64,000 nucleotides of DNA from a virus (IMGVR_UViG_3300028283_000231); one strand, 5' to 3'. Positions 46,697 to 64,000 are shown, counted from the stretch's first letter. Translations and numbers: made by a program. Notes: generated from the sequence alone by a model not told the origin.

Positions 46697-46697
46697 T

Positions 46698-46774: not shown

Positions 46775-46779
46775 CAACT

Positions 46780-46860: not shown

Positions 46861-46864
46861 ATAT

Positions 46865-46936: not shown

Positions 46937-46941
46937 CACAA

Positions 46942-47094: not shown

Positions 47095-47180
47095 GGAGAC
47101 ACCTATTGGCGCAGTTAGCTACCTCGAAAATAGTGAAGTCGATGAGAGTCGATGTGAAGGTTCAACTCCTTCTGTCTCCG
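47095..47180 (+). tRNA. tRNA-Ser(CGA), atypical D-arm
   Basis: ggagaca/tgtctcc acceptor, ctCGAaa loop, long variable arm, G73. Confidence 0.75.
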
Positions 47181-47241
47181 CAGGATTAGAGACTGTTATA
47201 ATTTCATAGTACTACCATATAAGGAAGCGTAGAAATTAAAT

Positions 47242-47326
47242 GGAAGATTGACTGAGTGGTCTATAGTGCACGCTTGGAAAGCGTGTGGGTGTAACAGCTC
47301 CACAGGTTCGAATCCTGTATCTTCCG
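47242..47326 (+). tRNA. tRNA-Ser(GGA)
   Basis: cacgc-ttGGAaa-gcgtg, long variable arm. Confidence 0.92.
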
Positions 47327-47334
47327 CAAAATAT

Positions 47335-47423
47335 GGAGAGTTGGCAGAGAGGTAATGCACCAGTTTGCTAAACTGCGGTCTGCGGTAGCACCAGCGGGGG
47401 TTCGATCCCCTCACTCTCCGCCA
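47335..47423 (+). tRNA. tRNA-Ser(GCT)
   Basis: cagt-ttGCTaa-actg, long variable arm, encoded CCA. Confidence 0.9.
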
Positions 47424-47428
47424 AAAAT

Positions 47429-47509
47429 GTGGTTGTAGCTGAGACGGTTTAGCATCGGGTTGAAGCCCCGAGATAGGACAGGACGGTGGTTCGATTCCGC
47501 CCAATCACA
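47429..47509 (+). tRNA. tRNA-Phe(GAA) with enlarged variable region
   Basis: tcggg-ttGAAgc-cccga. Confidence 0.8.
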
Positions 47510-47518
47510 CAAATAACT

Positions 47519-47605
47519 GGAGGGTCCTATGTGGCGCAGTTAGCTGTCTTGAAAACAGTGAAGTCGGCGAGAACCGGCGTGGGAGTTCGACTCTCCCATC
47601 CTCCG
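47519..47605 (+). tRNA. tRNA-Ser(TGA), atypical D-arm
   Basis: gctgt-ctTGAaa-acagt, long variable arm, G73. Confidence 0.82.
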
Positions 47606-47657
47606 CAATGGCGATGATAGTAACGCAGTTTGAAATAGAACAAATAACCTATCACAC

Positions 47658-47735
47658 GCGTCTGTAGCTCAGATGGTAGATACAAGCACCACTCTTTTAA
47701 AGTGGGGGTCGTGGGTTCGAACCCCACCAGGCGCA
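47658..47735 (+). tRNA. tRNA-Lys(TTT) with enlarged D-loop
   Basis: ccact-ctTTTaa-agtgg. Confidence 0.85.
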
Positions 47736-47751
47736 CAAAAAATTAAATGAT

Positions 47752-48483
47752 ATGAAATACTTAATAGGAATACAACCAACAGGAAAACTACATATAGGAA
47801 ACTATCTTGGATGTCTGGCAAAAGGTTTACGCCTTCAAAACGAAGGTCACGACGTCACATTCCTTATAGCAAACTATCATAGTATGACCACTGGTTCATA
47901 CACAGAAGAAACTGAAAATGAGTTAGTTAGATTGGGTTGTAAAAATATAAAGCGTCAAACACCTGAGTACACAGAGAAGTTCTTTGAATTATGTTGTAAA
48001 ATGAATTTGGGTCAACTTTTAAAGATGCCTCAATACAAAGATAAGAGAGACAAGGTGGAATATGATTTAGGATTACTTTTATATCCAGTGTTAATGACGG
48101 TAGATATAATAATCAACGATCCAGATGTGATTATTGTAGGATTAGATCAAGTGGCTCATATAGAATTAGCTAATGATATAGCAAAAAGAGTAGGAATAGA
48201 TAAACATTTTGAGTACGAACTGGGGGATATAAATAAGATAATGTCTTTGATAGATCCAACAATTAAAATGTCTAAATCATCTGGTGAAAAACACGTTCTT
48301 TATATCTTTGATGAAAACTATAAAAGTAAATTGAAGAAGGCTAATATGAATGACGAAGGATTACTTAATTTGAGAAAGATTGGTGATTTCTTTGGAATAG
48401 AAAGATGTGATTCAAATTTTGAATATAAAATGAGATTAGCTGAAGTATTAGAAAAAACCTTCCAAGAGGAAGAAGTCTTCTGA
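47752..48483 (+). CDS. trpS: Tryptophanyl-tRNA synthetase, minimised (243 aa)
   Basis: GIQPTGKLHIGNYLG (HIGH), YPVLM..DI, VGLDQVAH, KMSKS. Confidence 0.88.
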   Translation: MKYLIGIQPTGKLHIGNYLGCLAKGLRLQNEGHDVTFLIANYHSMTTGSYTEETENELVRLGCKNIKRQTPEYTEKFFELCCKMNLGQLLKMPQYKDKRDKVEYDLGLLLYPVLMTVDIIINDPDVIIVGLDQVAHIELANDIAKRVGIDKHFEYELGDINKIMSLIDPTIKMSKSSGEKHVLYIFDENYKSKLKKANMNDEGLLNLRKIGDFFGIERCDSNFEYKMRLAEVLEKTFQEEEVF

Positions 48484-48565
48484 GGTAGCTCTGGTATAGG
48501 TTCGCGCGCAGGGTCTATATTGGGAATTAGCAAAAGGAAGAGCAACTCACAAATCTTGGAAGAAT

Positions 48566-48640
48566 GGGATCATAGGTCAATTGGTAAACTAGTAGACTTT
48601 TAATCTACGGCTCCGGGTTCGACCCCCGGTGGTCCCACCA
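48566..48640 (+). tRNA. tRNA-Lys(TTT)
   Basis: gtaga-ctTTTaa-tctac; encoded CCA. Confidence 0.92.
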
Positions 48641-48645
48641 AACAC

Positions 48646-48717
48646 ACGTCTATGGTGTAATGTGCAGCACAAAGGCTTCCAAACCCTTTTGTCCGAGTTC
48701 GAATCTTGGTAGGCGTA
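48646..48717 (+). tRNA. tRNA-Trp(CCA), one anticodon-stem mismatch
   Basis: aaggc-ttCCAaa-ccctt by cloverleaf register (a TCC reading is less well paired). Confidence 0.65.
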
Positions 48718-48719
48718 CA

Positions 48720-48833
48720 AAAGTTAAGTGGCGAAACTGGTAACGCTTGGGGATAAGCTCTCTATAAAAACCTGTGATGGGTTAGTAAGTCTAAATCTTC
48801 GGATAGTATAGGTTCGAGTCCTATCTTAACTTT
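48720..48833 (+). ncRNA. Enlarged tRNA-like RNA / pseudo-tRNA
   Basis: aaagttaag/cttaacttt acceptor-like stem, D-loop tggcgaaactggtaacgc, intact T-arm, extra hairpins. Confidence 0.5.
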
Positions 48834-48838
48834 TATTT

Positions 48839-48911
48839 GGGTTCATAGGTCAATTGGTTAAACTAGTAGACTCTTAATCTACGGCTCTGGGTTCGAATCC
48901 CAGTGAACCCA
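48839..48911 (+). tRNA. tRNA-Lys(CTT)
   Basis: gtaga-ctCTTaa-tctac; near-copy of 48566-48640. Confidence 0.92.
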
Positions 48912-48916
48912 CAAAC

Positions 48917-48989
48917 GGGATGCTAGCTCAACTGGCAGAGCTGGACACTCTTAATGTTCAGGTTCGGGGTTCGAGTCCCCGGCGTCCCA
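48917..48989 (+). tRNA. tRNA-Lys(CTT)
   Basis: ggaca-ctCTTaa-tgttc. Confidence 0.9.
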
Positions 48990-50160
48990 CAGTTAGGTTT
49001 TTTTACAATTTTTACATTTTTTCAGAACCATAATTTTATATATCTTAGCACCTTCTTTGTTTGTAGAAGCCAGGAATGTTACTTTCACTGTTCCTTTTCT
49101 AGTGAAAGTCATTTTCTTACCAGTTATATCGTATGTTATTAAACATTCTTTCCCGTTTTCTTCTGCTACTATATTAAGTTCGTAATCTTCCTTTTTAATT
49201 TCTTTTATTTCGCTATATAAGTGAACAACACTAGTTTGTTCTTCTTTCCTTAATTGTTTATCTCTCGATAAGTATATAGTGAAAGGCTTCTCTATATCTA
49301 CTTTCAGATTCTGGTTGAACTTCATCCACTAATGGTAAAGGTTTAATTAATAAATCTTTAACAGATTTCCATGTCAACTTTTCTTTTAAAAAATCGTCGA
49401 AGTGTGTAATGTTTTTTAAATTTTTCATCGTCCAGATTTTTTTATTGCTATATATTGTTTTAATTTTGCAAAAATAAAACAATTAATAAGTTATATACTA
49501 TATTAGAGGTAATTAAGGATCATTTATGAAGATATTTTTAACAATTATATTATTAGTATTATCTAATATAAATTTATATTCACAAGAAGGCGTTGGTAAG
49601 TTTAAAATAAACAAATCTACTGTTGATGTAATCAAAGACGTAGAAAGTGAAATTGGTAAAACTTACGATATTACCAACGTCTTGGAGTTTTATAACAATC
49701 ATTATATCAATGGTGATTTGAAATTCCAAGAGATAATTATGGACACTACTACTAATTGTAAAAATTCTAGAATATTTTATATATCAGAATACACTATATC
49801 TAATATCAAATTAAAGGAAATTTATTTAGTTTTCTTTAAAGACTTGCTTGTAGAATTCAGATGTGATAAGAGTAAAGAACTAGATATATTATTTTCTAGA
49901 AAATATGGAAGACCTTACGTGTTTCAGAAATTATCACCAGATATGGTTTCCAACACTTTAAAGTACGACGAACATATGACCAAATTTGTTTGGAGGGAAA
50001 GTAATATAACTACTATATCATTTGAAAAGAAACAGGTATTTGACGGTATTGTTAGAGACGCTGGATCATATTTTATCATATATGACGTGACTTACAGAAA
50101 AATTATTGAAGATTGTGATATTTTTAACGATAATTTTGAAAATAAAATAATTTATTAACT

Positions 50161-50625
50161 ATGTGTGAATTAAACTCTTTAATTGAAAAGGCTAACAAAG
50201 CTTCAACAGAAAAAGGTTTTTGGGAAGATTACGATAATATGATTAAGAAAATGAAAGGTCTTCCCAAACAATTTATTCAATCTGATATTGATAGAATCAA
50301 ATTAGCTTTCTACAATGAAAAAATATCTTTAATATCTTCTGAGCTTGGTGAAGCCACTGAAGCTATGAGAATAGGAAAATATTGTGCTTTGAACGAAGAT
50401 GGTTTGAAAAATATTAAAGATCTTCTCGATGAAGAGAATAGTGGTTTTAAATATCAAGGTGCTTATATTACTCATATTAAAGATACATTTGAAGACGAGA
50501 TTGCTGATTCTTTCATCAGATTATTTGACTTGTGTTACAAGATGGGTATTGATATTGAGACCTTTATCTTAATGAAGATGGAGTATAATATGCTCAGAGA
50601 TTCTAAACACGGTAAAAAGTTCTAA
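50161..50625 (+). CDS. MazG-like nucleotide pyrophosphohydrolase
   Basis: SELGEATEAMR and EDEIADSFIRLFDL. Confidence 0.75.
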   Translation: MCELNSLIEKANKASTEKGFWEDYDNMIKKMKGLPKQFIQSDIDRIKLAFYNEKISLISSELGEATEAMRIGKYCALNEDGLKNIKDLLDEENSGFKYQGAYITHIKDTFEDEIADSFIRLFDLCYKMGIDIETFILMKMEYNMLRDSKHGKKF

Positions 50626-50669
50626 TAAATTTTTTTATTTAGATATTTATTATTACTTTCGTTAAAATA

Positions 50670-51200
50670 ATGCTTACTATGGAAGAAAAATATAAAGAGC
50701 TATTATCTTGGATTGATGATGTTCTTGAAAGTAAGAAAGTATCTATATTAATGAATGACCATATATCTGGTTTCATTGCGTCTAAAATTGCCTCAAATAA
50801 AGTTGGTAAAGATAACGTTGTGAACGTTATAATCCCTTGCTATTCAAACACAGAATACATTTTAACATCAGCCTTGTTTAGCAACGAACAAGGTATTAAA
50901 TATAAAAGTATAGGTATAAAACACGTTTTTGATTCTATAATGGAAAAAGACATAGAAGACGAAGATTCTATTGATATTACTAATATTCTTCGTGGACATA
51001 TCATGGAAGAAATTAGTCTTAAAAATAAGAGTGTTGTATTTGAATTTGTAAAAAAAGAGGGGTCAGGATGGTGGAGAGCTGATGGCAACTACGCTTTCAG
51101 AATTCTTCGTCCCAATAACGAACAAGAGTTAATATGGTCTTTTGATTTTTCAGAAAAAGAATTGATTGAATTTGCTAAATATTTAGGCATTGATGGATAA
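50670..51200 (+). CDS. Degenerate NAD-synthetase-like N-terminal domain
   Basis: SGFIASKIA...GKDNVVNVIIPCYS resembles NadE, but the SGGxDS loop is lost. Confidence 0.45.
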   Translation: MLTMEEKYKELLSWIDDVLESKKVSILMNDHISGFIASKIASNKVGKDNVVNVIIPCYSNTEYILTSALFSNEQGIKYKSIGIKHVFDSIMEKDIEDEDSIDITNILRGHIMEEISLKNKSVVFEFVKKEGSGWWRADGNYAFRILRPNNEQELIWSFDFSEKELIEFAKYLGIDG

Positions 51201-51552
51201 TTTCATAGATACACCTGAACTTTTCCTGGAAACAACTATCAATGATACCTGGAAAAATAAACTCATTTGGATCAAAGAGTTATTGGAGTACGGTTCTAAA
51301 TATACTGTTCTCATTCCAGTTATAGGTTATAAATATCTTAAAATAGAAACATTAGATATTGGTCAACCTTCTTTTGTTAAAGCTGAATATCATACAGGAG
51401 TAGCTAAAAATAAAGTGGACTTTATATCATTGAAGGCACACGAACACCCAGAAAGAATACAAAGATTAATACTAGCAATAAGAAGGCAACAAGACGCAAA
51501 AAATTAAAATAGTTATTAGTTATTATATCATGATTTTGCATGATCTTATAAA

Positions 51553-51771
51553 TTGTTGATTATGAAAGAGGGAGAAGATTATTTTGTTTGGCACTGTGGA
51601 ACTAAATTCGACGATGAAGGTACTTTAATTACTGATGGTGGTAGAGTTCTAGCTGTAACAGCGATGGGAGAAACACCGGAAGAAGCTTTAAAAAGGGCTT
51701 ACGAAGTAGCTGAGAAAATTCAATACGAAGGTAAATATTATAGAAAAGACATTGGTCAGGATTTATTATGA
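51553..51771 (+). pseudogene. PurD (GAR synthetase) C-terminal domain fragment
   Basis: HCGT...LITDGGRVLAVTAMG.T.EEA..RAYE....I.YEGKYYRKDIG; no N or ATP-grasp domain upstream. Confidence 0.7.
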
Positions 51772-51936
51772 AAAAAGAAGAAGAAATAAAAGAAAAATTA
51801 GAGTGTGCATTAATCGCGTTAAAGACATACGAAGACTTTGATGAAGTAGGATATGCCACATATAAAGGGTGGATTGATGCACTTAAATGGGTATTAGAGT
51901 CGGAAGACAAACTTACATGGATAAAGGATAAAACAA

Positions 51937-52389
51937 ATGAAAAATAAATTAAGTATAAAAAATAAGAAAGCATTTTTCAATTACGAAATTATTGAAAGTG
52001 AAGTAGCTGGGCTAGTTTTACTTGGAACAGAAGTAAAATCCATAGTGGATGGTAAAATCAGTTTTACAGACGCTTATTGTGATTTTGTAGAAAACGAATT
52101 ATGGCTTAAGAATTTTCATATCAGTGAATATGAAAAGGCTGCAGAAAATCACGATCCTAAACGTGATCGTAAACTCTTGTTAACTAAACAACAGTTAAAT
52201 AAATTCAAAAAGAAATTTGACGAGAAGGGATTAACTATTGTTCCTCTTAATATTTTCATTAATACTAAAGGACTTGTTAAAATGGATATTGCTCTAGTGA
52301 GGGGTAAGAAACAATATGATAAAAAAAATACAATTGCTGAGAGAGAAGAGAAAATTAGAATAAAAAGAGATTTTAATATTAATATATAA
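51937..52389 (+). CDS. smpB: SsrA-binding protein
   Basis: NKKAFFNYEI, AGLVLLGTEVKS, HDPKRDRKLLL, GLTIVPL, RGKKQYDK. Confidence 0.95.
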   Translation: MKNKLSIKNKKAFFNYEIIESEVAGLVLLGTEVKSIVDGKISFTDAYCDFVENELWLKNFHISEYEKAAENHDPKRDRKLLLTKQQLNKFKKKFDEKGLTIVPLNIFINTKGLVKMDIALVRGKKQYDKKNTIAEREEKIRIKRDFNINI

Positions 52390-52409
52390 GGAAAAGAACT
52401 TTATGTATT

Positions 52410-53315
52410 ATGAACAATTTTAAAATAAAAAATCTAAAGACCGATAGAAGTGTATTTTTAGAAAGATATTTAATTGAAAATTATTCGGTAAAATCAAAAG
52501 ATGATATAACGAAGGAATTGGGGTTATCTTGGAATTATATACAAAAATTAGTTTGTTTATTTGGGTTAAAAAGGGAATTTAATGAGTTTAAATATAGTTT
52601 TTCTATAAAGAAATTATTGGAATTTGATAATATGTCTTGTTACTGGTTGGGGTTTATATTAGCTGATGGACATATATCAAAAGTTAAAAATATTCAAATA
52701 AATTTGGCGATAAAAGATAAAGAACATTTATATGAACTGGAAAAATATGTGGGTCATAAAATAAGCAAATATGAGGATAATACTAAAATTAGATGTATTA
52801 TACAGGATAAACCAACAATAAATCAAATATCAAAAATGTTTAAATGGAAAACCAATAAAACAAAAAATCCACCAGTGATACCTCCGATAATAAGAGGAGA
52901 TAAATTATTTAGTTTAATAATAGGATTTATAGATGGAGATGGAAGCGTATCGAAAAAAGGAGATTGTATAAGAATAAAATGTGACAATACGTGGAAAGAT
53001 ACAATAGAAGAATTCTATGAAAATATAACTGGTGAAAAAAGAGAATTTGATATAACCTCTGATAATTGTTCAATTATACGCATAACAAAATATAAAGAAT
53101 TAGAAAGAATAAAAAATAAAGCTAATATGTTGGGACTTCCAATTATGAGAAGAAAGTGGGATAGAATTATAGACAATAGGATCGTAAAATCTGATAAATA
53201 TTTAATTGTTGAGAATTTATTGAAATTAAATAAAAGTGTAAATGAAATAATGAAAGAAACAAATTTTAGCGAGTCGTTTATATATAAAATTAAATCAAAC
53301 ATAAAAAATTACTAA
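52410..53315 (+). CDS. LAGLIDADG homing endonuclease
   Basis: YWLGFILADG and IIGFIDGDG. Confidence 0.85.
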   Translation: MNNFKIKNLKTDRSVFLERYLIENYSVKSKDDITKELGLSWNYIQKLVCLFGLKREFNEFKYSFSIKKLLEFDNMSCYWLGFILADGHISKVKNIQINLAIKDKEHLYELEKYVGHKISKYEDNTKIRCIIQDKPTINQISKMFKWKTNKTKNPPVIPPIIRGDKLFSLIIGFIDGDGSVSKKGDCIRIKCDNTWKDTIEEFYENITGEKREFDITSDNCSIIRITKYKELERIKNKANMLGLPIMRRKWDRIIDNRIVKSDKYLIVENLLKLNKSVNEIMKETNFSESFIYKIKSNIKNY

Positions 53316-53768
53316 AAATAAGGAGAAAAATATGCCACAGACATTTGAAGTTTATAGTTTTCCAGCTGACCTGGTTGTTACAGAAGAAATGGTTTTCAAT
53401 TTCACTAAGTTTATTGATTTTGATCTAAATAAAGCTATTCTTAAACATTATGATGTGAATGTTTTAGATGTTGAGACTTTCTATAAAATAATTAAAGATC
53501 TTATCAAAGAAGGAACCGTTGGGGGAGGCGATAGCAAATGGAGTGATAAATTATATAGAATAGTTGAAACTATTATGTATGATAAATATCTCTCTAAGAG
53601 TTTTGGTTTTTTCAAAGTCGATAAATATACAGACGAAGAAGGACATGATCAATATGATTATTACGAATACGTTAGCACTGAAAAACATATTAAAAATGCC
53701 ATAAGTGAGATTGAGAAACAAATCAAAGCACTTGAAAAATATGGTAAAAAAGTAAAATTCGAAATATC

Positions 53769-54746
53769 ATGACTAAAATAAGTAAATTTAAGAAACTTCT
53801 CTCTGAAGCTGTTGATATCGCTAGATCATACGGATTCGATATTACAGTTGAATCCATTATGGAGCGTTGGAGTGAAACACACAGGCATTGGCATACTCCA
53901 GATCATCTGAATGAAATGTTAGAAGGAGTTAAAGAACTATACAAGGATAAAAAAGTAAGTGAAAGGGAATACAATATCCTTATGATTGCCGCCATTTTCC
54001 ACGATATTGTTTACGACACTAAAAAGAAAGATAACGAGGAAAAAAGTGTTGAGTACATGATGTCCAAATTTAATAAAGAACTAATTGATACTAGAATATC
54101 TATATCTGATTGGAGAGTAGACGAAGATATAATTAAAATTACAGATGTTATAATGGGAACTAAAACCCACGATTCAATAGAAGGTCTATTGAAGAAATTC
54201 AATAAACTAGATACAGCTATACTCGACTCCCAATTTATTGATATGCTTGATTGGGAAAATAAAATCTATAAAGAATATAAATGGGTGGGTTGGAAAGAAT
54301 ATAAAAAAGGAAGAACTAAATTCCTTCTTAGTCAAATTAAAGGACACACTCATAACGTTTTAAATATTAAGAACTTAATCGATTATATTAATAAGAAGGT
54401 TCCAAAGACTGGTATTGTTTACTACGATATAGATAAACTACCAACTATTGAGAAGTTTATTGAGAACAACAATAAAGTCAATAATTTATTTGATAATGTT
54501 ATGACTTTAATTGTGTTTAATTCAGACAATTACAATAAAGAGAAGATTAAAGAGTACGGTATTTGTTCGGATGGTAACAATGAATTTTTTGCTCTTATGG
54601 AGGATTCTGTGATTGGTTTTGTAAGTAAGCAGACTGGTGATGTTACTATTGTGAAGGAAATGAAGTATATGGATAAATATAATAATAAGGCTTTGGATCA
54701 ACAATTAAGTACTAAGTTAGGAGATTTTAGAGTAATTTATATTTAA
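53769..54746 (+). CDS. HD-superfamily phosphohydrolase-like protein
   Basis: RHWHTPDHL, AIFHDIVYD, DNEEKS. Confidence 0.75.
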   Translation: MTKISKFKKLLSEAVDIARSYGFDITVESIMERWSETHRHWHTPDHLNEMLEGVKELYKDKKVSEREYNILMIAAIFHDIVYDTKKKDNEEKSVEYMMSKFNKELIDTRISISDWRVDEDIIKITDVIMGTKTHDSIEGLLKKFNKLDTAILDSQFIDMLDWENKIYKEYKWVGWKEYKKGRTKFLLSQIKGHTHNVLNIKNLIDYINKKVPKTGIVYYDIDKLPTIEKFIENNNKVNNLFDNVMTLIVFNSDNYNKEKIKEYGICSDGNNEFFALMEDSVIGFVSKQTGDVTIVKEMKYMDKYNNKALDQQLSTKLGDFRVIYI

Positions 54747-54795
54747 TTTTTTTATTCTGAGATTTATTTTTATCTTTGTATAAATAACAGGTATT

Positions 54796-54963
54796 ATGTT
54801 CACATCAACAGAAAATAAGATAAAGCTAACCATTGTTAAGGCTAATATCGCAAAGAGCGTTAGAGAGTTAGCGATCTTTTCTATCTTGGATGAAATCAAG
54901 AAGAAGGCTGGTGATAACTATATTCCTGCTGATCCTTACGGTGAAGAAATTTGGGATAAATGA
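54796..54963 (+). CDS. Small protein ending DPYGEEIWDK (not in the ORF track)
   Basis: Manual translation, 55 aa; TATCTTTG promoter at 54771. Confidence 0.7.
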   Translation: MFTSTENKIKLTIVKANIAKSVRELAIFSILDEIKKKAGDNYIPADPYGEEIWDK

Positions 54964-55211
54964 GAAATCTTAAAATAGGTAATAGGGTAAAATATAAGAA
55001 CAACGAAGGAGAAGTGTTTGATATACAGTATCAAAATTACGATCAAGTTGTTGGTGTAAAATTCGATAGACGTTGGCGTTGGGATATGCCTGAGTCTAAA
55101 GAGTTTTATTTTCATTATAATGCTATTAAGAAAATCATAGTTAGGGTTTTCAGTGCTGAAGATCCTTATGGTGAAGAAGATTGGGATTATTAACTATTAA
55201 TATAAATAAAA

Positions 55212-55394
55212 ATGAAAAAACTTTACAAATCAAAAAATGACGCTGTGATAAGTGGAGTATGTGGTGGTTTGGCTGAATATTTTAACATAGATTCATTTCT
55301 TGTTAGATTGTTATTCGTACTCTTTTCCTGGATGGGATTTTTCCCTGTATTTCTTTATCTTATTTTAATGTTAACTTTACCTGAAAAACCATAA
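55212..55394 (+). CDS. PspC-domain membrane protein
   Basis: KLYKS..D..ISGVCGGLAEYFNID..LVRLLFV. Confidence 0.88.
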   Translation: MKKLYKSKNDAVISGVCGGLAEYFNIDSFLVRLLFVLFSWMGFFPVFLYLILMLTLPEKP

Positions 55395-55398
55395 CGTT

Positions 55399-55926
55399 AT
55401 GATAACGATGTTTGTAACATACGATCTAGTATGTAAAGAGTACGAAAAAGAGTCTCAAGAACTCATTAATGTACTGAGAAATAGTAACAGTAAGTATAAA
55501 GACACCCCAGTTGAAAAACTCCATTGGGCATATTCTTTTTCTTATTTCAGAAAAAAGTCTGAAAACACACCTGAATATTACGAAACACTCTTTAAACTTC
55601 CCTTTGAGGAAAGATTAGAAGTGGAATTGAAAAGAGTTAGAGTAAGTCTAGCTTTATCTGCTGGATATTTCTATCTATCAGATAGGGTAACTAACGTTTC
55701 TGATTCAGTTAAAGAAACAGTTAGGCTTATCACTACACAGAAAATGGTAAACGAACAACAAATGATAGGTGACGAAAATGTACTCAACTCTATACCATTT
55801 GTTAAAAATGAAGAAAAACCACAACCAACATCTTTACAGGATCAGTTAAAACAAGCTATTGATACTGAGGATTATATGGAGGCGGCTAGGATTAGGGACG
55901 AAATTAAAAAATTACACGAGGCGTGA
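55399..55926 (+). CDS. Hypothetical protein with C-terminal UvrB/C (UVR) motif
   Basis: LQDQLKQAIDTEDYMEAARIRDEIK. Confidence 0.75.
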   Translation: MITMFVTYDLVCKEYEKESQELINVLRNSNSKYKDTPVEKLHWAYSFSYFRKKSENTPEYYETLFKLPFEERLEVELKRVRVSLALSAGYFYLSDRVTNVSDSVKETVRLITTQKMVNEQQMIGDENVLNSIPFVKNEEKPQPTSLQDQLKQAIDTEDYMEAARIRDEIKKLHEA

Positions 55927-56962
55927 CGATATTATTATATTTTGGATTAATATTTGCTTTTTATATTGTACCTATTGTAATAGTCTTTATCATTTCGCAT
56001 AATAGTAATGATTTTGAACTAAACAATAGAGGTATGGTAATTCATTTAATACCTCTTGTTGCTATTATCAGTTTGGTTATAATAGCTGCGTCTATTATTA
56101 AAGATTGGTGGGATGATAACGGATTTGAATTTACAATTATTGATAATGTTAAAGAGAGTTTAAGAGAAAGAAAAATAAGAAAAGAAAAGAGAAAAAGGGA
56201 TTTAGAAGAAAGATTAAGGAAGATAAAGTTGGGTATTATTAAGATTTCACCTCAAGATCCGTATGGTGAAGAAAATTGGGATTAATATGTTACCAAAAAC
56301 TAAAAGAGAAAAATTATTATATTTCATGCCAAGTGATGTGAAAGAAGTTTGGGATAAATTAGAACAAAATGTGCAAGAAAATATAATAGGCGCTTCTGAA
56401 TTTTATATTCTTGATAGTTCATGGAAAGTGGAACAGTTTTGGAAGACTAGACGATTAGATTTATATATAAAAAAGGTCATTAAAAGAATATTCAGCGCTG
56501 AAGACCCTTACGGTGAAGAAAATTGGGATTAAAAGATTTATATATAAATAAAAAAGATTTAAATAAATTATGAACATTAAATTTAATACCTTTTTAAACG
56601 AAGAAATGACTCATAAAGAACTAGCGGAAGATCTAAAAACAGCAAAATTCATTCAAGTTGAATTCGTTGGTAAAGGTAAAAATTGGGGACTAACATATAC
56701 CAAAGACGGTGAAAAACACGAAGAAGGTGGGTTTAATACTAACGCTGATGTTCATAATTTCTTAGTAGATAACGATATAGATTACGGTGGTAAGCCAGGT
56801 TATTTACAGATGAAGGGGTTTAGGGATAAACAAATCGCCAAAGTACCTTTTGGTAATTATCAAAGGCAATTGATGGATAACGGAATAGATCCAGAATTAT
56901 TGATGTAAATTTTTTTTATATAGAAAAGAAGCTTATATTTGTATTAGTAATTATCAGTGAAC

Positions 56963-57108
56963 AGATTTTTATTGAAACTAGTGTAACAAGATACGATCCA
57001 AAAATTAGCACGTCTTTAGCGGTAGTAAACCTATAACGATTGGATGATACAGAGGCCAATTACAAGAAAGAGCGGTGGAGAATCGGGAGTCCGCATCAAT
57101 AAAAGTCT
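56963..57108 (+). ncRNA. Candidate structured ncRNA (about 145 nt)
   Basis: 13-bp closing stem, nested stems, downstream of TATATTTG promoter (56934). Confidence 0.5.
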
Positions 57109-57451
57109 TTAAATTTAATTTTATGAAAAAAGAAGCCTGTAAATTCGCTAAGTGGTTAGGTAAAAACGGTTGGTATTGCATTTCTCATAGTGGTAAACTT
57201 TGGGAAAGACCCAATGATATTAAACACCCAAAGAAAGGTGTGTATCATATGACTATTGATGAACTTTATGATGAGTATAATGGAGAAAAATAAAGTGTGT
57301 GGGAATTGCGTACATTGTAAACCTTTTTACGACGTGAACACTGTTTGTTTCATTGGCCATCCAATGAGATATAAATCTGTTAAGAAAACAGATAGTTGTG
57401 ATAAATTCAAAAAGAAATAACATAAATTTTTTTTAAATTGGAAAACTTTCG

Positions 57452-57459
57452 TATCTTTG
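57452..57459 (+). promoter_or_regulatory. Bacteroidota-type sigma-A -7 element TAnnTTTG (representative copy)
   Basis: Also intergenic at 38895, 44784, 46021, 54771, 56934, 63745 (+) and 2507, 9017 (-); 57452 and 63745 share 21 identical nt. Confidence 0.75.
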
Positions 57460-58024
57460 TATTCTAAATCCAAACCTATGAAAAAATTTCTGTTTTATAA
57501 GAAAAATTTAAATACAGGAAGAGTAAGGAAACATCCATTTTTCACAGTAGAATGTGAAAATATAGATGAAGCAAAGAAAGCTTTTGAAGCTAAAAATGAA
57601 TTAGTGTTTAAAGAAACTGAAACATATATTATAAAATGAACAAGAATACAGCTAATAAATTGTGGATGGATTTATATTTTGGTATAAGTCCTTTGTGTTT
57701 CTCCTTATCAAAAGATGGTAATGATTACGCAATCATCTTCAAACCAACAAAAGAAAAAGTACTCACTTTCGAAGAAGGAGTTAATTTGGCAACTAAACAC
57801 AATCTTATAAAAGTAAAGAAATGATAGAAAAAAGATTTGATTTTATTCTCGAAGATCTCAATGAGATCGAATCCACTCTTCAAAAGATAGGAGTTGATAC
57901 AGAGAACATTATGACGGAAGGCGGTGATTTCTTAATCACTTTATTCAATAACATTAGAATAGCTTGTGATCTTAAAGACGACGAACCAGATAACTGGTAA
58001 TGGAAAAAAGTGATATTTTTGATT

Positions 58025-58041
58025 AAATATATAAAACAAAG
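58025..58041 (+). promoter_or_regulatory. Promoter of tRNA-Leu operon
   Basis: Identical 17-mer to 46163-46179. Confidence 0.7.
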
Positions 58042-58067
58042 TAATAATAATACAATATATAAAACAT

Positions 58068-58136
58068 ATGAATAACATTCTACATATTAACCTTCTGAAC
58101 AGTTTATGCCTCTTGGGTATAAAGTTGATTGGGTGA
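58068..58136 (+). CDS. Attenuator leader peptide 2 (MNNILHINLLNSLCLLGIKLIG)
   Basis: 7 of 22 codons are Leu: CTA, CTT, CTG, TTA, CTC, TTG, TTG; antiterminator segment tgattgggt (58126-58134) overlaps the stop codon. Confidence 0.85.
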   Translation: MNNILHINLLNSLCLLGIKLIG

Positions 58137-58172
58137 AGTATGTGTGGATGTCTCAAAAGGAGCTTCGAACTC

Positions 58173-58206
58173 AAACCCAATCAGCAATGATTGGGTTTTT
58201 TGTTTT
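58173..58206 (+). terminator. Intrinsic terminator/attenuator before tRNA-Leu operon
   Basis: aaacccaatca-gcaa-tgattgggttt plus U-tract. Confidence 0.9.
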
Positions 58207-58234
58207 TATGTTCTTTAACATTTTGAAATAATAA

Positions 58235-58375
58235 AGATTGCTTACAGCAAACAAAACGGCTCCCGCCAAAAATTGGGAGAGTAGTGTAAGGGTAACACAC
58301 CATTGGACGCAGAGAAAAAGCAAAGATGGAGAATGTTGGTTCGAGTCCAACCTTATTTTAAAAAGGCAATCTGTT
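58235..58375 (+). ncRNA. ACAGCAA-motif stem enclosing a degenerate tRNA
   Basis: agattgctt/aggcaatct stem, ACAGCAA, internal D-arm-like and T-arm (gttggttcgagtccaac) elements. Confidence 0.5.
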
Positions 58376-58378
58376 TAT

Positions 58379-58460
58379 GCCCTTGTGGCGGAATTGGTAG
58401 ACGCGCTAGACTTAGGATCTAGTGTCTCCGGATGTGCAGGTTCGAGTCCTGTCAAGGGCA
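58379..58460 (+). tRNA. tRNA-Leu(TAG)
   Basis: ctaga-ctTAGga-tctag, long variable arm. Confidence 0.93.
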
Positions 58461-58465
58461 CAAAA

Positions 58466-58549
58466 GCGGTTATGGCGGAATTGGTAGACGCGCCAGCTTG
58501 AGGGGCTGGTGTCCGCAAGGACGTAGGGGTTCGAGTCCCCTTAACCGCA
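58466..58549 (+). tRNA. tRNA-Leu(GAG)
   Basis: ccagc-ttGAGgg-gctgg, long variable arm. Confidence 0.93.
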
Positions 58550-58551
58550 CA

Positions 58552-58670
58552 ATGAAGTATGACGAAGAGGTAGACGTATTACCCGCCAAGGGTAAACATG
58601 GGAAAGACCGAAGTACAAGGGCTAACCGCTGATAAATCAGTCTTATAGGTTCGAATCCTATTACTTCATT
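58552..58670 (+). ncRNA. Enlarged tRNA-like RNA
   Basis: atgaagt/acttcat acceptor, intact T-arm, non-canonical anticodon loop, about 45 nt of extra structure. Confidence 0.5.
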
Positions 58671-58675
58671 TACAA

Positions 58676-58759
58676 GCCGATGTGGCGGAACTGGTAGACG
58701 CGCCACACTCAAAATGTGGTGTCCGCAAGGGCGTGTGGGTTCGAGTCCCACCTTCGGTA
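58676..58759 (+). tRNA. tRNA-Leu(CAA)
   Basis: ccaca-ctCAAaa-tgtgg, long variable arm. Confidence 0.93.
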
Positions 58760-58765
58760 CAAAAT

Positions 58766-58838
58766 GACTCTGTAGCCTAATTGGTAGTGGCGTTGGGTTT
58801 AAGCCCCAAATATCTCGGTTCGACTCCGTGCAGGGTTA
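58766..58838 (+). tRNA. tRNA with Leu(TAA) anticodon and short variable arm
   Basis: ttggg-ttTAAgc-cccaa; 4-nt variable region; A73. Confidence 0.8.
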
Positions 58839-58843
58839 CAAAT

Positions 58844-58917
58844 GGCTCTATGGCGTAATAGCGTAGTCGCGCAAGTCTTAGAAACTTGATGTCCCAGTTC
58901 GAGTCTGGGTAGGGCCA
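58844..58917 (+). tRNA. tRNA with Leu(TAG) anticodon and short variable arm
   Basis: caagt-ctTAGaa-acttg; 4-nt variable region; A73. Confidence 0.8.
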
Positions 58918-58972
58918 CAAATATGAAACAATGGGACCATATAATTTTTATATATAAGAATAAAACTCATAT

Positions 58973-59743
58973 ATGGAACAATTCATTTACACTTTAACAG
59001 ATCCAGAAGACGGTGATATAAAATATATTGGAAAAACTAACAATATTGAAAAAAGAATTAAAAGACATTATTCTGATTATTATATTCAGTTGGAACCTTG
59101 GACAAAAAAGAATAAATGGTTAAAATATTTAAAAAATAAAAAATTGGTTCCGATTATAGAAATATTGGATATTGGTGATGATAATAATATCAATAATTTA
59201 GAAAAATATTGGATATGCCAATTTAAAGTTTGGGGATTCAAGTTAAAGAATCAGACTGATGGAGGTGATGGAGTATCTTGGTTAGGTAAAAAACACAGTG
59301 ATGAAAGTAAAAGATTGATGAAAATATCTAACACTAGAAAAAGGTCAATAATAATGTATGATTTAAATTTAAATCCAATAATAAAATTTATTAGCATAAG
59401 AGGGGCTGAGAGAGAAACTGGAATATTTAGACAACAAATAAAATTTAGTTGCGATTTAAAAGGTAGTGCCGGCGGTTGTTATTTTAGATATGATGAAAAC
59501 AATTCGAATATTCTTGAAGATAAAAACTGGAGAGATTATATAAATATAAGAAATTATGGAAAATTTGATAAAAATCTAGATAAAGAATATTTTGAAACAG
59601 TTGTTAAAAAATCAAAATCATACCGTGATGTAGTTGATAATTTGAATGTTAATTATGATAGTAAAGTGAAACACCATGTTTATAGAATCATAAAAAAATA
59701 CAATATAAATATAGATCATTTCACAAGAAAGGAAAAGAAATGA
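58973..59743 (+). CDS. GIY-YIG homing endonuclease
   Basis: FIYTLTDP..IKYIGKT; LKNQTDGGDG; own ATATATA promoter. Confidence 0.88.
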   Translation: MEQFIYTLTDPEDGDIKYIGKTNNIEKRIKRHYSDYYIQLEPWTKKNKWLKYLKNKKLVPIIEILDIGDDNNINNLEKYWICQFKVWGFKLKNQTDGGDGVSWLGKKHSDESKRLMKISNTRKRSIIMYDLNLNPIIKFISIRGAERETGIFRQQIKFSCDLKGSAGGCYFRYDENNSNILEDKNWRDYINIRNYGKFDKNLDKEYFETVVKKSKSYRDVVDNLNVNYDSKVKHHVYRIIKKYNINIDHFTRKEKK

Positions 59744-61266
59744 AGAAAAAAATGTTTGTGGTTCCGATGATACCATACCCTAGCGGTAATATCCATATGG
59801 GTCATATGAGAAATTACACCATATCTGACGCTATAGCCAGGTACTGGAGAAATAAAGGATACGAAGTTTGCCACCCTATTGGATGGGATTCCTTTGGTAT
59901 GCCAGCAGAAAACGCAGCTATCAAAAATAACATTCATCCTAAAGAATGGACAGATGCCAATATTGATAACATGCGAAACCAAATGAAAAGAATGAATATG
60001 TCTTTTGATTGGGACAAAGAAATATCTACATGTGAAGTTGATTACTGGCAACACGAACAAAGATTCTTTATAGACGCTTGGAAAGCAGGGTTCATTGAGA
60101 AGAAAATTGGCATAGTAAACTGGGACCCAGTGGATCAAACAGTTATGGCATCAAATCAAGTTATCGATGGAAAGGGTTGGAGATCAGGAGCTAAGATTGA
60201 GAAGAAAGAGATGGTTCAATATTATTTCAAAACTACTATGTTTGCTGATGAGATGTATGAATCAATAAAAGATATTGAGAATGATTGGCCCGAAATCATA
60301 ACAAAACAACAAAAACAATTTATTAAAAACGGTATTAGGGAAGGAGACGAAGTAAGACCTTTCGCAGATTGGTGTATTTCAAGACAAAGATTTTGGGGAA
60401 CTCCGATTCCTATGATTAATTGTCCAAAATGTGGCACTGTTCCAAACGAACAAATACCAGTTATTGCTCCACATGACGTAGAATTTAACGGTAAAGGTAA
60501 TCCTATCGATAATCATCCAACTTGGAAATATATTAAATGTCCAGTTTGTGGCAGTGACGCTGAAAAAGAAACAGATACTATGGACACATTCGTACAATCA
60601 AGCTGGTACTTCATTCGTTACATATCAGACTTTAATGGTGTTAGATTTGATTGGGATAAGATAAAACATTGGTTTCCAATTGATTATTATATTGGTGGAG
60701 CTGAGCACGCTACTGGTCATATGATTTATGCCAGATTTTTCTGGAGGATTTTTAAGAAGATGGGATATATTCCAGAGGATGCTCCCACTGAACCTTTTGG
60801 TAAGGTTATTACTCAGGGTATGGTGAAGAAGGATGGTAAGAAAATGTCTAAAAATTTTGGTAACGGGGTATCTCCAGATGAAATGGTGGAGAAGTATGGT
60901 AGTGATGTAATAAGAATGTATATTATGTTTGCTGGTCCTCCTGATCAAGATTTTGAGTGGATTGATGATAATATATCTGGTTGTAATAGATTTTTCAAGA
61001 AATTCAAGAATGGGTTTGAAAGAACTAAAGGGATGGTTTATGTAGAGAATAAGAAGAATGAAGATTGGGCGAAGAATAGAATAGAAGTGATGAAACAGAG
61101 AACTAAAGATGTTTACGAAAGGACATATAAGTTTAATACTATTGTATCTACGGCGATGGAAACTTATAACGCCATATCGAAGACAACAGATATAAACATT
61201 TGGAGGAATGGTTATGATGCTATTATGGACGCGATGGAGCCAATTGCACCGGGATTCAGAACGTAA
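59740..61266 (+). CDS. leuS: Leucyl-tRNA synthetase lacking CP1 editing, Leu-specific and C-terminal domains (508 aa)
   Basis: PYPSGNIHMGH, GWDSFGMPAENAA, DWCISRQRFWGTPIP, TMDTFVQSSWY, YIGGAEHA, KMSK. Confidence 0.92.
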   Translation: MKKKMFVVPMIPYPSGNIHMGHMRNYTISDAIARYWRNKGYEVCHPIGWDSFGMPAENAAIKNNIHPKEWTDANIDNMRNQMKRMNMSFDWDKEISTCEVDYWQHEQRFFIDAWKAGFIEKKIGIVNWDPVDQTVMASNQVIDGKGWRSGAKIEKKEMVQYYFKTTMFADEMYESIKDIENDWPEIITKQQKQFIKNGIREGDEVRPFADWCISRQRFWGTPIPMINCPKCGTVPNEQIPVIAPHDVEFNGKGNPIDNHPTWKYIKCPVCGSDAEKETDTMDTFVQSSWYFIRYISDFNGVRFDWDKIKHWFPIDYYIGGAEHATGHMIYARFFWRIFKKMGYIPEDAPTEPFGKVITQGMVKKDGKKMSKNFGNGVSPDEMVEKYGSDVIRMYIMFAGPPDQDFEWIDDNISGCNRFFKKFKNGFERTKGMVYVENKKNEDWAKNRIEVMKQRTKDVYERTYKFNTIVSTAMETYNAISKTTDINIWRNGYDAIMDAMEPIAPGFRT

Positions 61267-61558
61267 AAAATATATATAGAAATAAAAACAAATTATGAAA
61301 GTTTTTGTTAAGATTTTATTAGTGATTATATATTTAGTTGTTGTTCTATGGGCCATTGGACAAAGTATAGACACATTACCATTCCATTTTGCTGATTTTC
61401 TAGTTGCTTTATTTGCTTTTGGTGGTATAATATATTGGGCAGAGCTTGACGTAGAATATATTTTTAAGTTCATTGATTGGTTAAAAAGTAAGAAGAAATC
61501 TTAAAAATGGATAAATATCAAACTTTTCCTGTTATATATAATATGTATATCGTAGAAC

Positions 61559-61786
61559 GTGTTGTTCTGCGATAAAAAAATAAATATAATAATGAATATG
61601 AATGGAAAAGTAAAGTTCTTCAATGAAGCTAAAGGTTTTGGTTTTATTTTAGAAAATGAAACAGGAAAAGAGTATTTTGTACACGCCACAGGTTTAGTCG
61701 ACAGAATACAAGAAAATGACGAGGTTGAGTTTGAATTAACTCAAGGTAAAAAGGGATTAAATGCAATTGATGTTAAGCTAATATAA
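61559..61786 (+). CDS. cspA: Cold-shock protein
   Basis: GKVKFFNEAKGFGFI, YFVHATG; real start probably MNMNGK/MNGK at about 61592-61598. Confidence 0.93.
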   Translation: MLFCDKKINIIMNMNGKVKFFNEAKGFGFILENETGKEYFVHATGLVDRIQENDEVEFELTQGKKGLNAIDVKLI

Positions 61787-61811
61787 TAGTAATCAACATA
61801 AACATTTATCT

Positions 61812-61843
61812 AAAAGACCCTGAGAAATCGGGGTTTTTTGTTT
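61812..61843 (+). terminator. Intrinsic terminator after cspA
   Basis: gaccctga-gaaa-tcggggtt plus U-tract. Confidence 0.8.
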
Positions 61844-61913
61844 TAATATACCACGACAACCAAGTGTACCATTTTTGACTTTTTATTTTTAATATATAAG
61901 AATAAAAAGAAAT

Positions 61914-62384
61914 ATGAGAAAAGATATATTAGAGAAAAAAGATCAAATTGTAAAATGGATAGAAGATAATCAATCTAAGGCTTTTATATGTAGAGAAATA
62001 GAATGTAAACCCTTAACATTAGATCTTTATTTGAAGAAATGGAAAATAGAATATTCTGGTAATAAAGGATTAAAGGGTAAAAAAATAGCACATAATAGGT
62101 CACACGTTTCTAATTATTTGATTAAAGGTTCTTTAATTACAAGTTATAAGTTAAAGAAAAGACTAATTAGGGATGGGGTAAAAGAAAAAAAATGTGAAGT
62201 TTGTAGGTTAACTGAATGGAATAATAAAGAAATTCCATTGGAAGTACATCATATTGATGGTGATAGTTTTAATAATGAGTTAACAAATATAATGTTATTG
62301 TGTCCTAATTGTCACGCGCAGACTGATACTTATAGAGGATTGAACAAACATATATATAAAAATAGGAAAAAAGACATCAAATAA
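61914..62384 (+). CDS. HNH endonuclease
   Basis: CEVC...LEVHHIDGD..NN...N..LLCPNCH. Confidence 0.88.
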   Translation: MRKDILEKKDQIVKWIEDNQSKAFICREIECKPLTLDLYLKKWKIEYSGNKGLKGKKIAHNRSHVSNYLIKGSLITSYKLKKRLIRDGVKEKKCEVCRLTEWNNKEIPLEVHHIDGDSFNNELTNIMLLCPNCHAQTDTYRGLNKHIYKNRKKDIK

Positions 62385-62436
62385 TTTTTTTAATATATAA
62401 AAAAGTCGTAATTTTGACGTAGTTCTTTGAAGATAT

Positions 62437-62520
62437 GCCGATGTGTTGTAATAGGTAGCCAAGACAGACTTAAAATCTGTTGAGAGTAATCTCGTGCCGG
62501 TTCGAGTCCGGCCATCGGTA
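62437..62520 (+). tRNA. tRNA-Leu(TAA), canonical long arm
   Basis: acaga-ctTAAaa-tctgt. Confidence 0.92.
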
Positions 62521-62533
62521 CAGTAAGGCGTAC

Positions 62534-62714
62534 AGGAAACCCTGCTTGAAGACAACAGTAACAATTGAGGGTGCAAGACTCTCCGGTGGAATACACTAAT
62601 AGCAGTATAGACTGGTTGTTATAGACTATTCCAGTAGTCGTTGTTTGTTGTAAAGATAGTGTAGTGGTGGTCATGTCCCCGACCTATTCCCTGGAAAATT
62701 GGACAGGGTTTCCT
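62534..62714 (+). ncRNA. Candidate structured ncRNA (181 nt)
   Basis: Perfect 11-bp closing stem aggaaaccctg/cagggtttcct with several internal stems. Confidence 0.55.
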
Positions 62715-64000
62715 TTCTTATTTTTTAAACTAAATAACTATGGATTATTACGAAACTATTGCTAAAATCGATCAAGACATTAAAGATCGAGAAGAGTTAG
62801 ATAACTATATTGAAAATGTACTTGATGGTACATTTCACACTATGGAAAGTGGAGATTATCCATATCCGTATTTAAAAGTAAAAACAGAAGATTTCAGTAA
62901 GACATTTAACCTTAAAGGTAAAACTATTGAATCTTTAAAGAAAGAAATAAGGGAAGCTCTTAATACAAAAATTAAGTTTTACCAGAATATATTAGACGAA
63001 ATATGAACATCTATAAAATAGAAGATAACAGACAAGGCGGACCAGCATGGGACGTTTACATTGGAGCTATTGTAGTCGCTGAGTCGCCCGATGACGCTAA
63101 GAAAATTCACCCTAACGGTTACGGTGTGGATTTTGCGGAATGGGACGGAACGGGAAGAAGGAATTACGAATGGGTTGATAAATATTCTGAAATTGATGTT
63201 ACTGAAATAGGTGTAGCAAATATTGATCAACCAAGAGGTGTTATAATGGATTCATATTGTGCAGGTTAATACTTAAAGTGATGAAAATGACTTGGAGACA
63301 ATTTTTCTTAAAATTGGGATTATCGTGGATTTTAATTAGTTTCATTTGTTATCTTATCATGACTTCTTTTTGGAGCTATAGACTAGGAATGAATCTACCT
63401 ACAATGCCGTTAAATATTGAAAGTATATTTTACACTATTTCAATGTCTCTTTATATGGGTGGATTGTTAACAGTTATGGGACTAGCAATGATCATATTAA
63501 TCGCTTTAATTAAGTCGTGGTGAAAACTTTAGAGGATAGAATAGAAAAAGATATTATAATAGGAATACCCAGTGGTGAAGTAATCTTTGTTGATAATATT
63601 GAAAAGGTGAAAGAACTTAAAAGATTAAAACTCATATGGATTAGAGTAATGCCAAATAAAACATTTGCTAGTGTATTTGAGGACAGGGATTTAAAAAAGA
63701 TTAAAAAGATATTGGAATAATTTTTTTATATCGTACACTTTCCGTATCTTTGTATTCTAAATCAGAAACAAAATTTTTTTGAGATTATTAAAACTTTTAA
63801 TAATTTCACAATATAATACATAACAATTGTTCTTTTATTAATGGTTTTTAGTGCGATTTGGTCGGACTACTTGGACTTGGACTTGGGATTCGCTACCTTG
63901 GGTCCACATTGGAAAATCCAGTGTTTAGTTTAACCAAAATAACACATAAAACTATGAGTAAGAAAGCTAAGTTAAATAACAGGGAAAAACGTTTACAGGA

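Follow-up and report, generated by a model that had tools for sequence, protein, structure and literature searches.

A probable ribosome-mediated attenuator sampling all six leucine codons ahead of a phage tRNA-Leu array

In the leader-peptide attenuators of amino-acid biosynthesis genes, such as leuL, trpL, hisL and pheL, transcription reads through when charged transfer RNA (tRNA) is limiting; in leuL four consecutive Leu codons, most of them the rare CUA, act as control codons. The targets of textbook leader-peptide attenuation are confined to genes of amino-acid biosynthesis and a small number for aminoacyl-tRNA synthetases. The purpose and timing of the tRNA genes carried by phages are debated, the proposals being that they compensate for codon usage, make up for host tRNAs that have been degraded or evade anticodon nucleases. 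Here we describe positions 58002-58207 of a 64,000-nucleotide (nt) stretch of viral DNA (IMGVR_UViG_3300028283_000231, analyzed in full and called the window below), which are probably a ribosome-mediated (leader-peptide) transcription attenuator gating a phage Leu decoding unit. The unit that would be gated comprises a tRNA-like RNA, five tRNA-Leu genes, a homing endonuclease gene, the gene of a minimal leucyl-tRNA synthetase (LeuRS), a small open reading frame (ORF) and a cold-shock protein (Csp)-like gene, and would extend to a terminator at 61811. Conservation, covariation and the concordance between leaders and the arrays behind them support this interpretation.

The leader ORF (58068-58136, + strand) consists of ATG and 21 further codons, 22 in total, with a TGA stop at 58134-58136. 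Seven of the 21 codons specify Leu (P = 6e-4 versus the phage proteome), namely CTA, CTT, CTG, TTA, CTC, TTG and TTG, and to find six of six Leu codon types among seven Leu codons has a probability of P = 0.007 under phage codon usage. Region 1 (58075-58093, +), the 5' strand of a leader hairpin, holds the CTA and CTT codons and adjoins CTG. Region 2 (58124-58151, +) begins with the antiterminator strand (58124-58134), and its part from 58131 to 58151 can alternatively pair with region 1. The intrinsic terminator (58173-58207, +) has an 11-bp stem with its 5' arm at 58173-58183 and its 3' arm at 58188-58198, a GCAA loop (58184-58187) and a T-tract to 58207; region 3 (58173-58185), its 5' arm, is common to the antiterminator. 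The 9-mer TGATTGGGT at 58126-58134 overlaps the leader stop codon, is identical to the terminator 3' arm and is complementary to 58175-58183. An earlier sequence-only reading of this DNA had pointed out the ORF with its seven Leu codons of six types, the 11-bp GCAA terminator and the 9-mer with its complement, and all of them are present where it had placed them. The leader RNA is more structured than expected (folding z-score -4.7), and the antiterminator duplex has a predicted energy of -15.7 kcal/mol versus -8.9 for shuffles (P = 0.028). The features tested and present at the Leu locus are thus a leader ORF with a start codon, enriched cognate control codons, a predicted intrinsic terminator ahead of the first gene and an antiterminator that shares a strand with it. 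No Rfam leader family matched across 58040-58210 at E <= 1, and no Rfam T-box match was obtained in 45000-64000 at E <= 1 or in 58200-58700.

In order to mimic the moment at which the decision would be taken, we cut the nascent RNA just 5' of the terminator 3' arm and slid a 29-nt ribosome footprint along the leader. The minimum free energy structure of the full-length RNA (-44.9 kcal/mol) combines the terminator with a region 1:2 helix (58075-58093 / 58131-58151). In the cut nascent RNA the terminator 5' arm (58175-58185) is paired with 58124-58134. With the ribosomal A-site on codons 2-15 the pairing probability of the antiterminator was 0.99, on codon 16 it was 0.68, and with the footprint on codons 17-22 it was 0.07-0.15, which is the drop that had been predicted for folding with and without a ribosome mask. 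In this footprint model Leu codons 5, 9, 10, 13, 15 and 16, which represent all six types, lie in the permissive zone, and the second TTG (codon 20) is the sole Leu codon within region 2. The proposal that each Leu isoacceptor is monitored agrees with the model, as the leader samples four of the four anticodon species of the array and each of the six codon types would be able to hold a ribosome within the permissive zone.

The nearest relative of the window phage, LR756501 (735 kb), is ~91% identical in this region. In LR756501 the identity is 100% over 58068-58150 and over the terminator from 58175 onward; many substitutions and three indels distinguish the 5' untranslated region and the spacer 58151-58174. 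Selection on the ORF, on region 2 and on the terminator would be expected to leave such conserved blocks amid diverged spacers. More distant relatives were found in IMG/VR with the LeuRS as probe. In the first of these (L054, LeuRS 86% identical) the leader has 25 codons, 10 of them Leu; the sequences of regions 2 and 3 are GGATTGGGT and ACCCAATCC, respectively, with a T-A pair changed to G-C, and since the changed C sits in the terminator loop this change supports the antiterminator helix specifically. A further relative (L055, LeuRS 81%) has a 29-codon leader of another peptide sequence with seven Leu codons, again of six out of six types. Here the two arms of the terminator have a completely changed sequence (CCCCCAGTC / GACTGGGGG), matched by a GACTGGG in the leader. 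At 69% LeuRS identity (L057) a leader with a run of Leu codons and a terminator stand directly ahead of the LeuRS gene with no tRNAs between, and at 66% (L058) the leader mixes Leu and AGA codons ahead of an array of Leu(tag) and Arg(tct, cct) tRNAs. The alignment of leaders that had been proposed as a check finds Leu-rich leaders retained (LR756501, L054, L055) and pairing arms that covary (L054, L055). The duplex between the 3' part of the ORF and the terminator 5' arm beats shuffles in eight of nine leaders of the window lineage (P <= 0.036). A metagenome scan with the LeuRS returned only a duplicate of L055. One further candidate, L059, was set aside; it is a class I synthetase of 23% identity with no tRNAs nearby.

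The idea extends past Leu, as the remaining 19 amino acids are represented in paralogous leaders ahead of other tRNA arrays. LR756501 has five arrays, each with its own leader enriched in the amino acids of that array, and jointly they cover 20 of 20 amino acids. Its Leu array is preceded by the same leader as that of 58068-58136; the Glu/Ile/Met/Gln array (EIMQ) by a leader with the core IINMIQEQMQQIQ; the Asp/Tyr/Ile/Asn/Cys array (DYINC) by one with the core YNDYCIND; the Ser/Lys/His/Phe/Trp array (SKHFW) by one with the core SKHSKHFSSSSKWF; and the Thr/Pro/Arg/Gly/Ala/Val array (TPRGAV) by one with the core TPAPAVAFRRGTGTGTGT. The window contains a second attenuator of this kind (46140-46376, +), with the same promoter-like motif as at 58002 and located ahead of a Trp/His/Phe/Lys/Ser tRNA array. 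Its leader (46222-46317, 31 codons) has the core SKHSKHFSSSSKWF and the antiterminator strand TTCGGGGTT (46282-46290), to which the 5' arm of its terminator (46338-46368) is complementary; this terminator is an example of stems that continue into the T-tract, which our home-made terminator scan overlooks. The Rfam family Thr_leader matches 46300-46373 at 34.9 bits, below its gathering score of 55. The Asp/Tyr/Ile/Asn/Cys leader lies ~300-400 nt past the window end. In a leader-by-array matrix of four leaders, cognate enrichment was observed on the diagonal only (P = 4e-5 to 6e-4), and among 2,392 short ORFs in the genome only 1, 40, 27 and 3 reach the cognate fractions observed for the four. 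The leaders also sample most of the anticodon species of their arrays (4/4 for Leu; 5/6, 5/6 and 12/15 for the others), with synonymous codons spread across isoacceptors.

In the more distant Mahaphages LR756502 and LR756504 the arrays are partitioned otherwise, and the leaders change accordingly. There, KHKHFSK..KWF precedes Phe/His/Lys tRNAs, IETIGYTGYEGAYSE precedes Glu/Tyr/Ile/Gly/Ala, NLNMNLNTLTVVNNTL precedes Asn/Leu/Val/Ile/Thr, DQDQPD precedes Pro/Asp/Gln, IAIVEIAVIGGAEEGV precedes Glu/Ala/Ile/Val/Gly, FWHFHF precedes His/Phe and LSLCLSLSLSL precedes Leu/Ser/Cys. An unbiased same-strand terminator scan of the array loci in these two genomes found a short ORF ahead of 17 of 19 terminators; 15 of the 17 were paired with downstream tRNAs in the concordance test, and six are internal leaders beyond the first leader set. 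The internal leaders include QQQQQQQ ahead of four tRNA-Gln, SSRSRSS ahead of Arg-Ser-Arg, IAMIIRMRIIR ahead of Arg-Ile-Met and KKQQYKQYQPQYK ahead of Tyr-Tyr-Gln-Lys x4. When 20 leader/array pairs are combined by Fisher's method, P is 9e-41, a value that overstates the evidence, and in this respect tempers our case, because some leaders are homologous across related genomes. None of 200,000 permutations reached the observed fit, and within a genome the array behind a leader was the one that it matched best in 12 of 12 comparisons. At the sequence level the differently partitioned genomes are real replicates and the strongest test.

Some arrays have no leader (L068, L071, L074), and others have none before their first tRNAs and only internal ones (L069, L073). 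Two further cases in LR756501, the pair of suppressor tRNAs and a small group, are without a leader. That genome also encodes two CTA (amber-reading) tRNAs (690585-690738), a tRNA to which ARAGORN assigns a 4-base anticodon (ttac; 204243-204333) and two tRNA-like genes whose anticodon loops have 2 bases (228902-229090). When exact copies of the terminator 3' arm were sought upstream of 85 LR756501 terminators, only the Leu leader was found, chance hits apart, because the other antiterminators are inexact copies; we therefore replaced this search by duplex energies tested versus shuffles. A joint Leu and DYINC sensing by the Leu leader (nine such residues, P = 0.085) was rejected because the Asp/Tyr/Ile/Asn/Cys array has a leader of its own. 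Between L061 (673-753) and LR756501 (174214-174134) the Glu/Ile/Met/Gln leader differs by substitutions mostly within the array's set (Ile to Glu, Ile to Met). Such within-set substitutions would be expected if any cognate codon serves.

From this arrangement we infer promoter use, coupling of translation to transcription, termination, read-through and a physiological trigger in the following way. Transcription would start from the promoter-like motif, and a ribosome would translate the 22-codon leader behind the polymerase. When all Leu-tRNA species are plentiful the ribosome would reach codons 17-22 and the stop, where it would lie over 58124-58134 and leave the terminator 5' arm free to form the hairpin, so that transcription would end at the T-tract. 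If decoding is slow at CTA, CTT, CTG, TTA, CTC or TTG (codons 5, 9, 10, 13, 15 and 16), the ribosome would stall upstream and disrupt the region 1:2 helix, and 58124-58134 would be free to pair with 58175-58185. The terminator would then be blocked and the polymerase would go on to transcribe the genes of the tRNA-Leu species and of LeuRS. As these products would relieve the stall, the circuit would be a negative feedback loop, which could hold Leu decoding capacity constant irrespective of the host tRNA pool.

The promoter in this scheme is assigned to a promoter-like motif (58002-58041, +) composed of GGAAAAAAGTGA, a T-run and AAATATATAAAACAAAG, which begins right behind the stop of an upstream ORF (57821-58000). 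The sequence-only reading had placed a promoter at 58025, where we find a 17-mer (58025-58041) with two exact copies in the window (46163 and 58025), each ahead of a tRNA-array leader, and two in the whole 735-kb LR756501, at both matching sites; a longer form of the motif occurs in ~14 copies in LR756501, ahead of genes. A sigma-70 consensus scan performed no better than on shuffles and was dropped as evidence. The element claimed at 58025 is thus a recurring phage-specific motif, and its role as a promoter is suggested by that recurrence. In LR756502, three leaders (L064, L066, L067) have a Bacteroidetes-type promoter (TTTG, ~19 nt, TAnnTTTG) ~50 nt upstream, and the same leaders carry a AATATATA element 5-8 nt ahead of the leader ATG, which may be a phage-specific promoter or translation signal. 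The window lineage has a GGAAAAAA-TGAC-T-run motif in place of the LR756502-type promoter.

Several observations weigh against attenuation as drawn here. The claim that a ribosome at the stop masks the antiterminator holds for codons 17-22, but with the footprint at the stop codon itself a pairing probability of 0.56 remains, because a second TTGGGT is located at 58113-58118. Equilibrium folding of the cut nascent RNA favors the antiterminator even without a ribosome, the 1:2 helix being seen in the full-length minimum free energy structure, and the switch would therefore have to be kinetic, as in classical systems. A ribosome at the stop of the SKHFW or the TPRGAV leader leaves the antiterminator strand uncovered. 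That the transcribing polymerase obeys intrinsic terminators is assumed. Two lake metatranscriptome runs contain assembled contigs of this region, and one RNA-library contig covers 57472-58164; if it is RNA it would represent read-through from upstream genes, but it may stem from DNA carry-over. Finally, a GTTCTTTAAC...TTGAAATAA motif (58210-58232, +) lies between the terminator and the first RNA gene. The motif, GTTCTTTGA[AC]..ATTGAAATA, is found at 58210-58232, at 62419-62436 and at many LR756501 sites, directly behind attenuator terminators, and its type also occurs ~30 nt ahead of many array tRNAs in LR756501 and its relatives. This GTTCTTTRA motif could be an internal promoter giving attenuator-independent expression, or it could be a processing signal; even as a promoter it would add basal expression without explaining codon matching.

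Taken further, the last point leads to an account in which the terminator and small ORF are a stand-alone insulator, or a peptide or small RNA gene, and the tRNAs are transcribed from their own promoter at GTTCTTTRA...TTGAAATA. The position of the motif at 58210 and ahead of so many array tRNAs fits such an account, as do the sixth tRNA-Leu (62437), which has the motif and no leader, and the leaderless arrays of LR756504 and LR756502. We nevertheless consider it unlikely, as it leaves unexplained why the composition of the ORF tracks the identity of the downstream tRNAs in 20 pairs, why its codons are spread over isoacceptors and why a segment of the ORF covaries with the terminator 5' arm; moreover, the motif is unlike the Bacteroidetes TTTG / TAnnTTTG promoter, both in its known form and as found in LR756502. 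A little less likely still is that the leader does sense decoding while its output is RNA processing or stability, Rho-type termination or downstream translation, with the hairpin serving as a processing or stability element. tRNA precursors require heavy processing anyway, and the imperfect geometry of the paralogous SKHFW and TPRGAV leaders, together with an antiterminator complementarity that is marginal (P = 0.08-0.17) in three of the seven tested leaders of LR756502 and LR756504, points in this direction. Opposed to it are the canonical GC-rich stem and T-tract behind every leader and an alternative pairing that always involves the terminator 5' arm and that covaries.

The genome is AT-rich with many short ORFs, and as the promoter consensus scan did no better than shuffles, one could also suppose that an ordinary terminator of the upstream operon happens to follow a spurious short ORF. 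Such a coincidence is extremely improbable and is effectively refuted by a perfectly conserved ORF amid diverged flanks, by the six-of-six Leu codon set with its P of 0.007, seen twice (in the window and in L055), and by the rarity of the cognate fractions among short ORFs and in the permutations given above. We therefore retain ribosome-mediated attenuation as the preferred interpretation of 58002-58207.

The unit behind the Leu attenuator opens with an RNA (58236-58373, +) that has a closing stem AGATTGC / GCAATCT and an CTTACAGCAAACAAAAC motif. Within it lies a tRNA-like element (58275-58359; Rfam tRNA, 37 bits) with D and T arms and an unpaired acceptor. The ACAGCAA motif is also present in long inserts of other tRNA-like genes, and it stands behind another copy of the promoter motif at ~344,300-344,500 of LR756501, on the minus strand. 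The tRNA-Leu array follows at 58379-58918 (+); according to ARAGORN and Rfam its canonical tRNAs have the anticodons tag, gag, caa, taa and tag, so that the downstream tRNAs are Leu-only, as the sequence-only reading had stated. A sixth tRNA-Leu (taa) is called by both programs at 62437. The array contains a tRNA-like insert of 125 nt (58551-58675). This insert and a similar element at 46776-46860 are tRNA-like RNAs of ~85-125 nt with an acceptor-like stem of 8-9 bp (AATGAAGTA / TACTTCATT) and a good T-arm that are not called by ARAGORN.

Between the tRNAs and the LeuRS gene is a gene for a GIY-YIG homing endonuclease (58973-59743, +; Pfam PF01541, E = 7e-7). The LeuRS gene (59740-61266, +) encodes a bacterial-type protein of 508 residues that matches TIGR00396 (leuS_bact equivalog) at 556.2 bits, above the cut-off of 548.4. 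This bears out the expectation that a LeuRS follows, with the correction that it stands behind the GIY-YIG gene, not directly behind the tRNAs, and that the enzyme is minimal. In its best PDB LeuRS match (E = 7e-133) residues 2-196 and 208-436 map to chain positions 33-226 and 412-644, and from the gap in this mapping we conclude that the CP1 editing domain is absent; the C-terminal domain is lacking as well. The protein aligns in a single stretch to PDB chain 3ziu_A, a shorter LeuRS of 637 residues that we take to be the editing-deficient Mycoplasma mobile enzyme. The minimal LeuRS may charge tRNAs in an error-prone or a specialized manner. A small hydrophobic ORF (61295-61504, +) and the gene of a cold-shock-domain protein (61559-61786, +; NCBIfam CspE-like, 62 bits, below the cut-off) come next, and a strong terminator (61811-61840, +) probably marks the end of the Leu unit. 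The best NCBIfam match of the Csp-like product is a CspE model described as 'transcription antiterminator / RNA stability regulator', and it is pure speculation that such a protein, synthesized once read-through has occurred, could act back on the attenuators by melting hairpins. Behind the 61811 terminator is an HNH homing endonuclease gene (61914-62384). LR756501 lacks a counterpart of this tRNA/synthetase-unit stretch in places, the match covering only 72% of the query. Elsewhere in the window, the Ser/Lys/His/Phe/Trp array has within it a truncated gene resembling that of tryptophanyl-tRNA synthetase (47752-48483, 243 residues; trpS 105 bits, cut-off 177).

The largest of the genomes in Al-Shayeb et al. 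2020 (PMC7162821) are predicted there to replicate in Bacteroidetes and are placed in the Mahaphage clade, in a paper that nowhere mentions attenuators, leaders or terminators. It appears fairly likely to us that these giant Bacteroidota phages run a complete, codon-resolved supply-on-demand translation system and that the principle also arose in unrelated phages such as phiCbK. If this is true, these phages divide their tRNAs for all 20 amino acids among regulons, some of them nested and some including matching synthetases, each of which is gated by a leader that tests its own isoacceptors. Decoding speed would then be measured codon by codon, and exactly those tRNAs that are scarce would be replaced when a shortage is triggered, for example by host shut-off or by an attack of tRNA-cleaving defense nucleases. 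This would amount to a general and so far undescribed principle of viral tRNA gene regulation. Such a sensor, turning on a tRNA block whenever decoding of the cognate codons slows down, would make phage tRNAs a supply under homeostatic regulation instead of a constitutive supplement. The leaders would also spell out which tRNAs share a transcription unit, which is an aid with odd tRNA-like genes, and as compact reporters of the decoding speed of chosen codons, even of single isoacceptors, they could serve as natural biosensors of tRNA availability. The idea is already open to laboratory tests, since the cultured Caulobacter phage phiCbK has this design too.

In phiCbK, matching short ORFs are present at two of three tRNA blocks that are preceded by a terminator. 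One of them, gp083, encodes 45 residues rich in S, L, P and K and is followed by an annotated terminator and by Pro, Pro, Lys, Lys, three Leu and two Ser tRNAs, and the other, with the core QFVRQIQVV, stands ahead of Phe, Val, Ile, Ile, Val, Gln and Gln tRNAs. The layout of small ORF, terminator and tRNA block is shared with the window phage, although phiCbK belongs to an unrelated lineage and host (a Caulobacter siphophage), has a GC-rich genome and shows no sequence similarity. In a full-text search of the literature we found no description of attenuator-controlled tRNA genes, phage or cellular, and none of these codon-matched phiCbK leaders.

Among described systems, the locus at 58002-58207 most resembles leuL of E. 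coli and Salmonella, together with trpL, hisL and pheL, in having a short leader with Leu codons, alternative 1:2, 2:3 and 3:4 hairpins and a T-tract terminator, a likeness drawn here from sequence alone. It differs from this class in its target, which consists of viral tRNA genes and a synthetase gene and not of cellular biosynthesis genes; in its control codons, seven Leu codons spread across six types in place of the four-Leu run of leuL; and in sequence family, as no Rfam leader model matches. With pheST of E. coli, controlled through the pheM leader, it has in common an attenuator ahead of an aminoacyl-tRNA synthetase gene, most directly so in L057, where the leader immediately precedes the LeuRS gene. 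pheST controls no tRNA genes, however, whereas in the window such genes come first and are the principal cargo. The paralogous leaders carry codons for several amino acids, as do those of ilvGMEDA (Ile/Val/Leu) and thr (Thr/Ile), but with up to six amino acids per leader, with codons matched to anticodons and as a set that covers all 20. In its proposed logic, by which a shortage of charged tRNA would lead to antitermination and to more expression of synthetase or supply genes, the locus is like the T-box riboswitches. Unlike T-boxes, which bind uncharged tRNA without translation, it has an ORF that would be translated, in an RNA of ~140 nt that no T-box model matches. Within the literature searched, the Leu locus and its paralogs would thus represent a known mechanism, leader-peptide attenuation, applied to a new class of target, tRNA genes.

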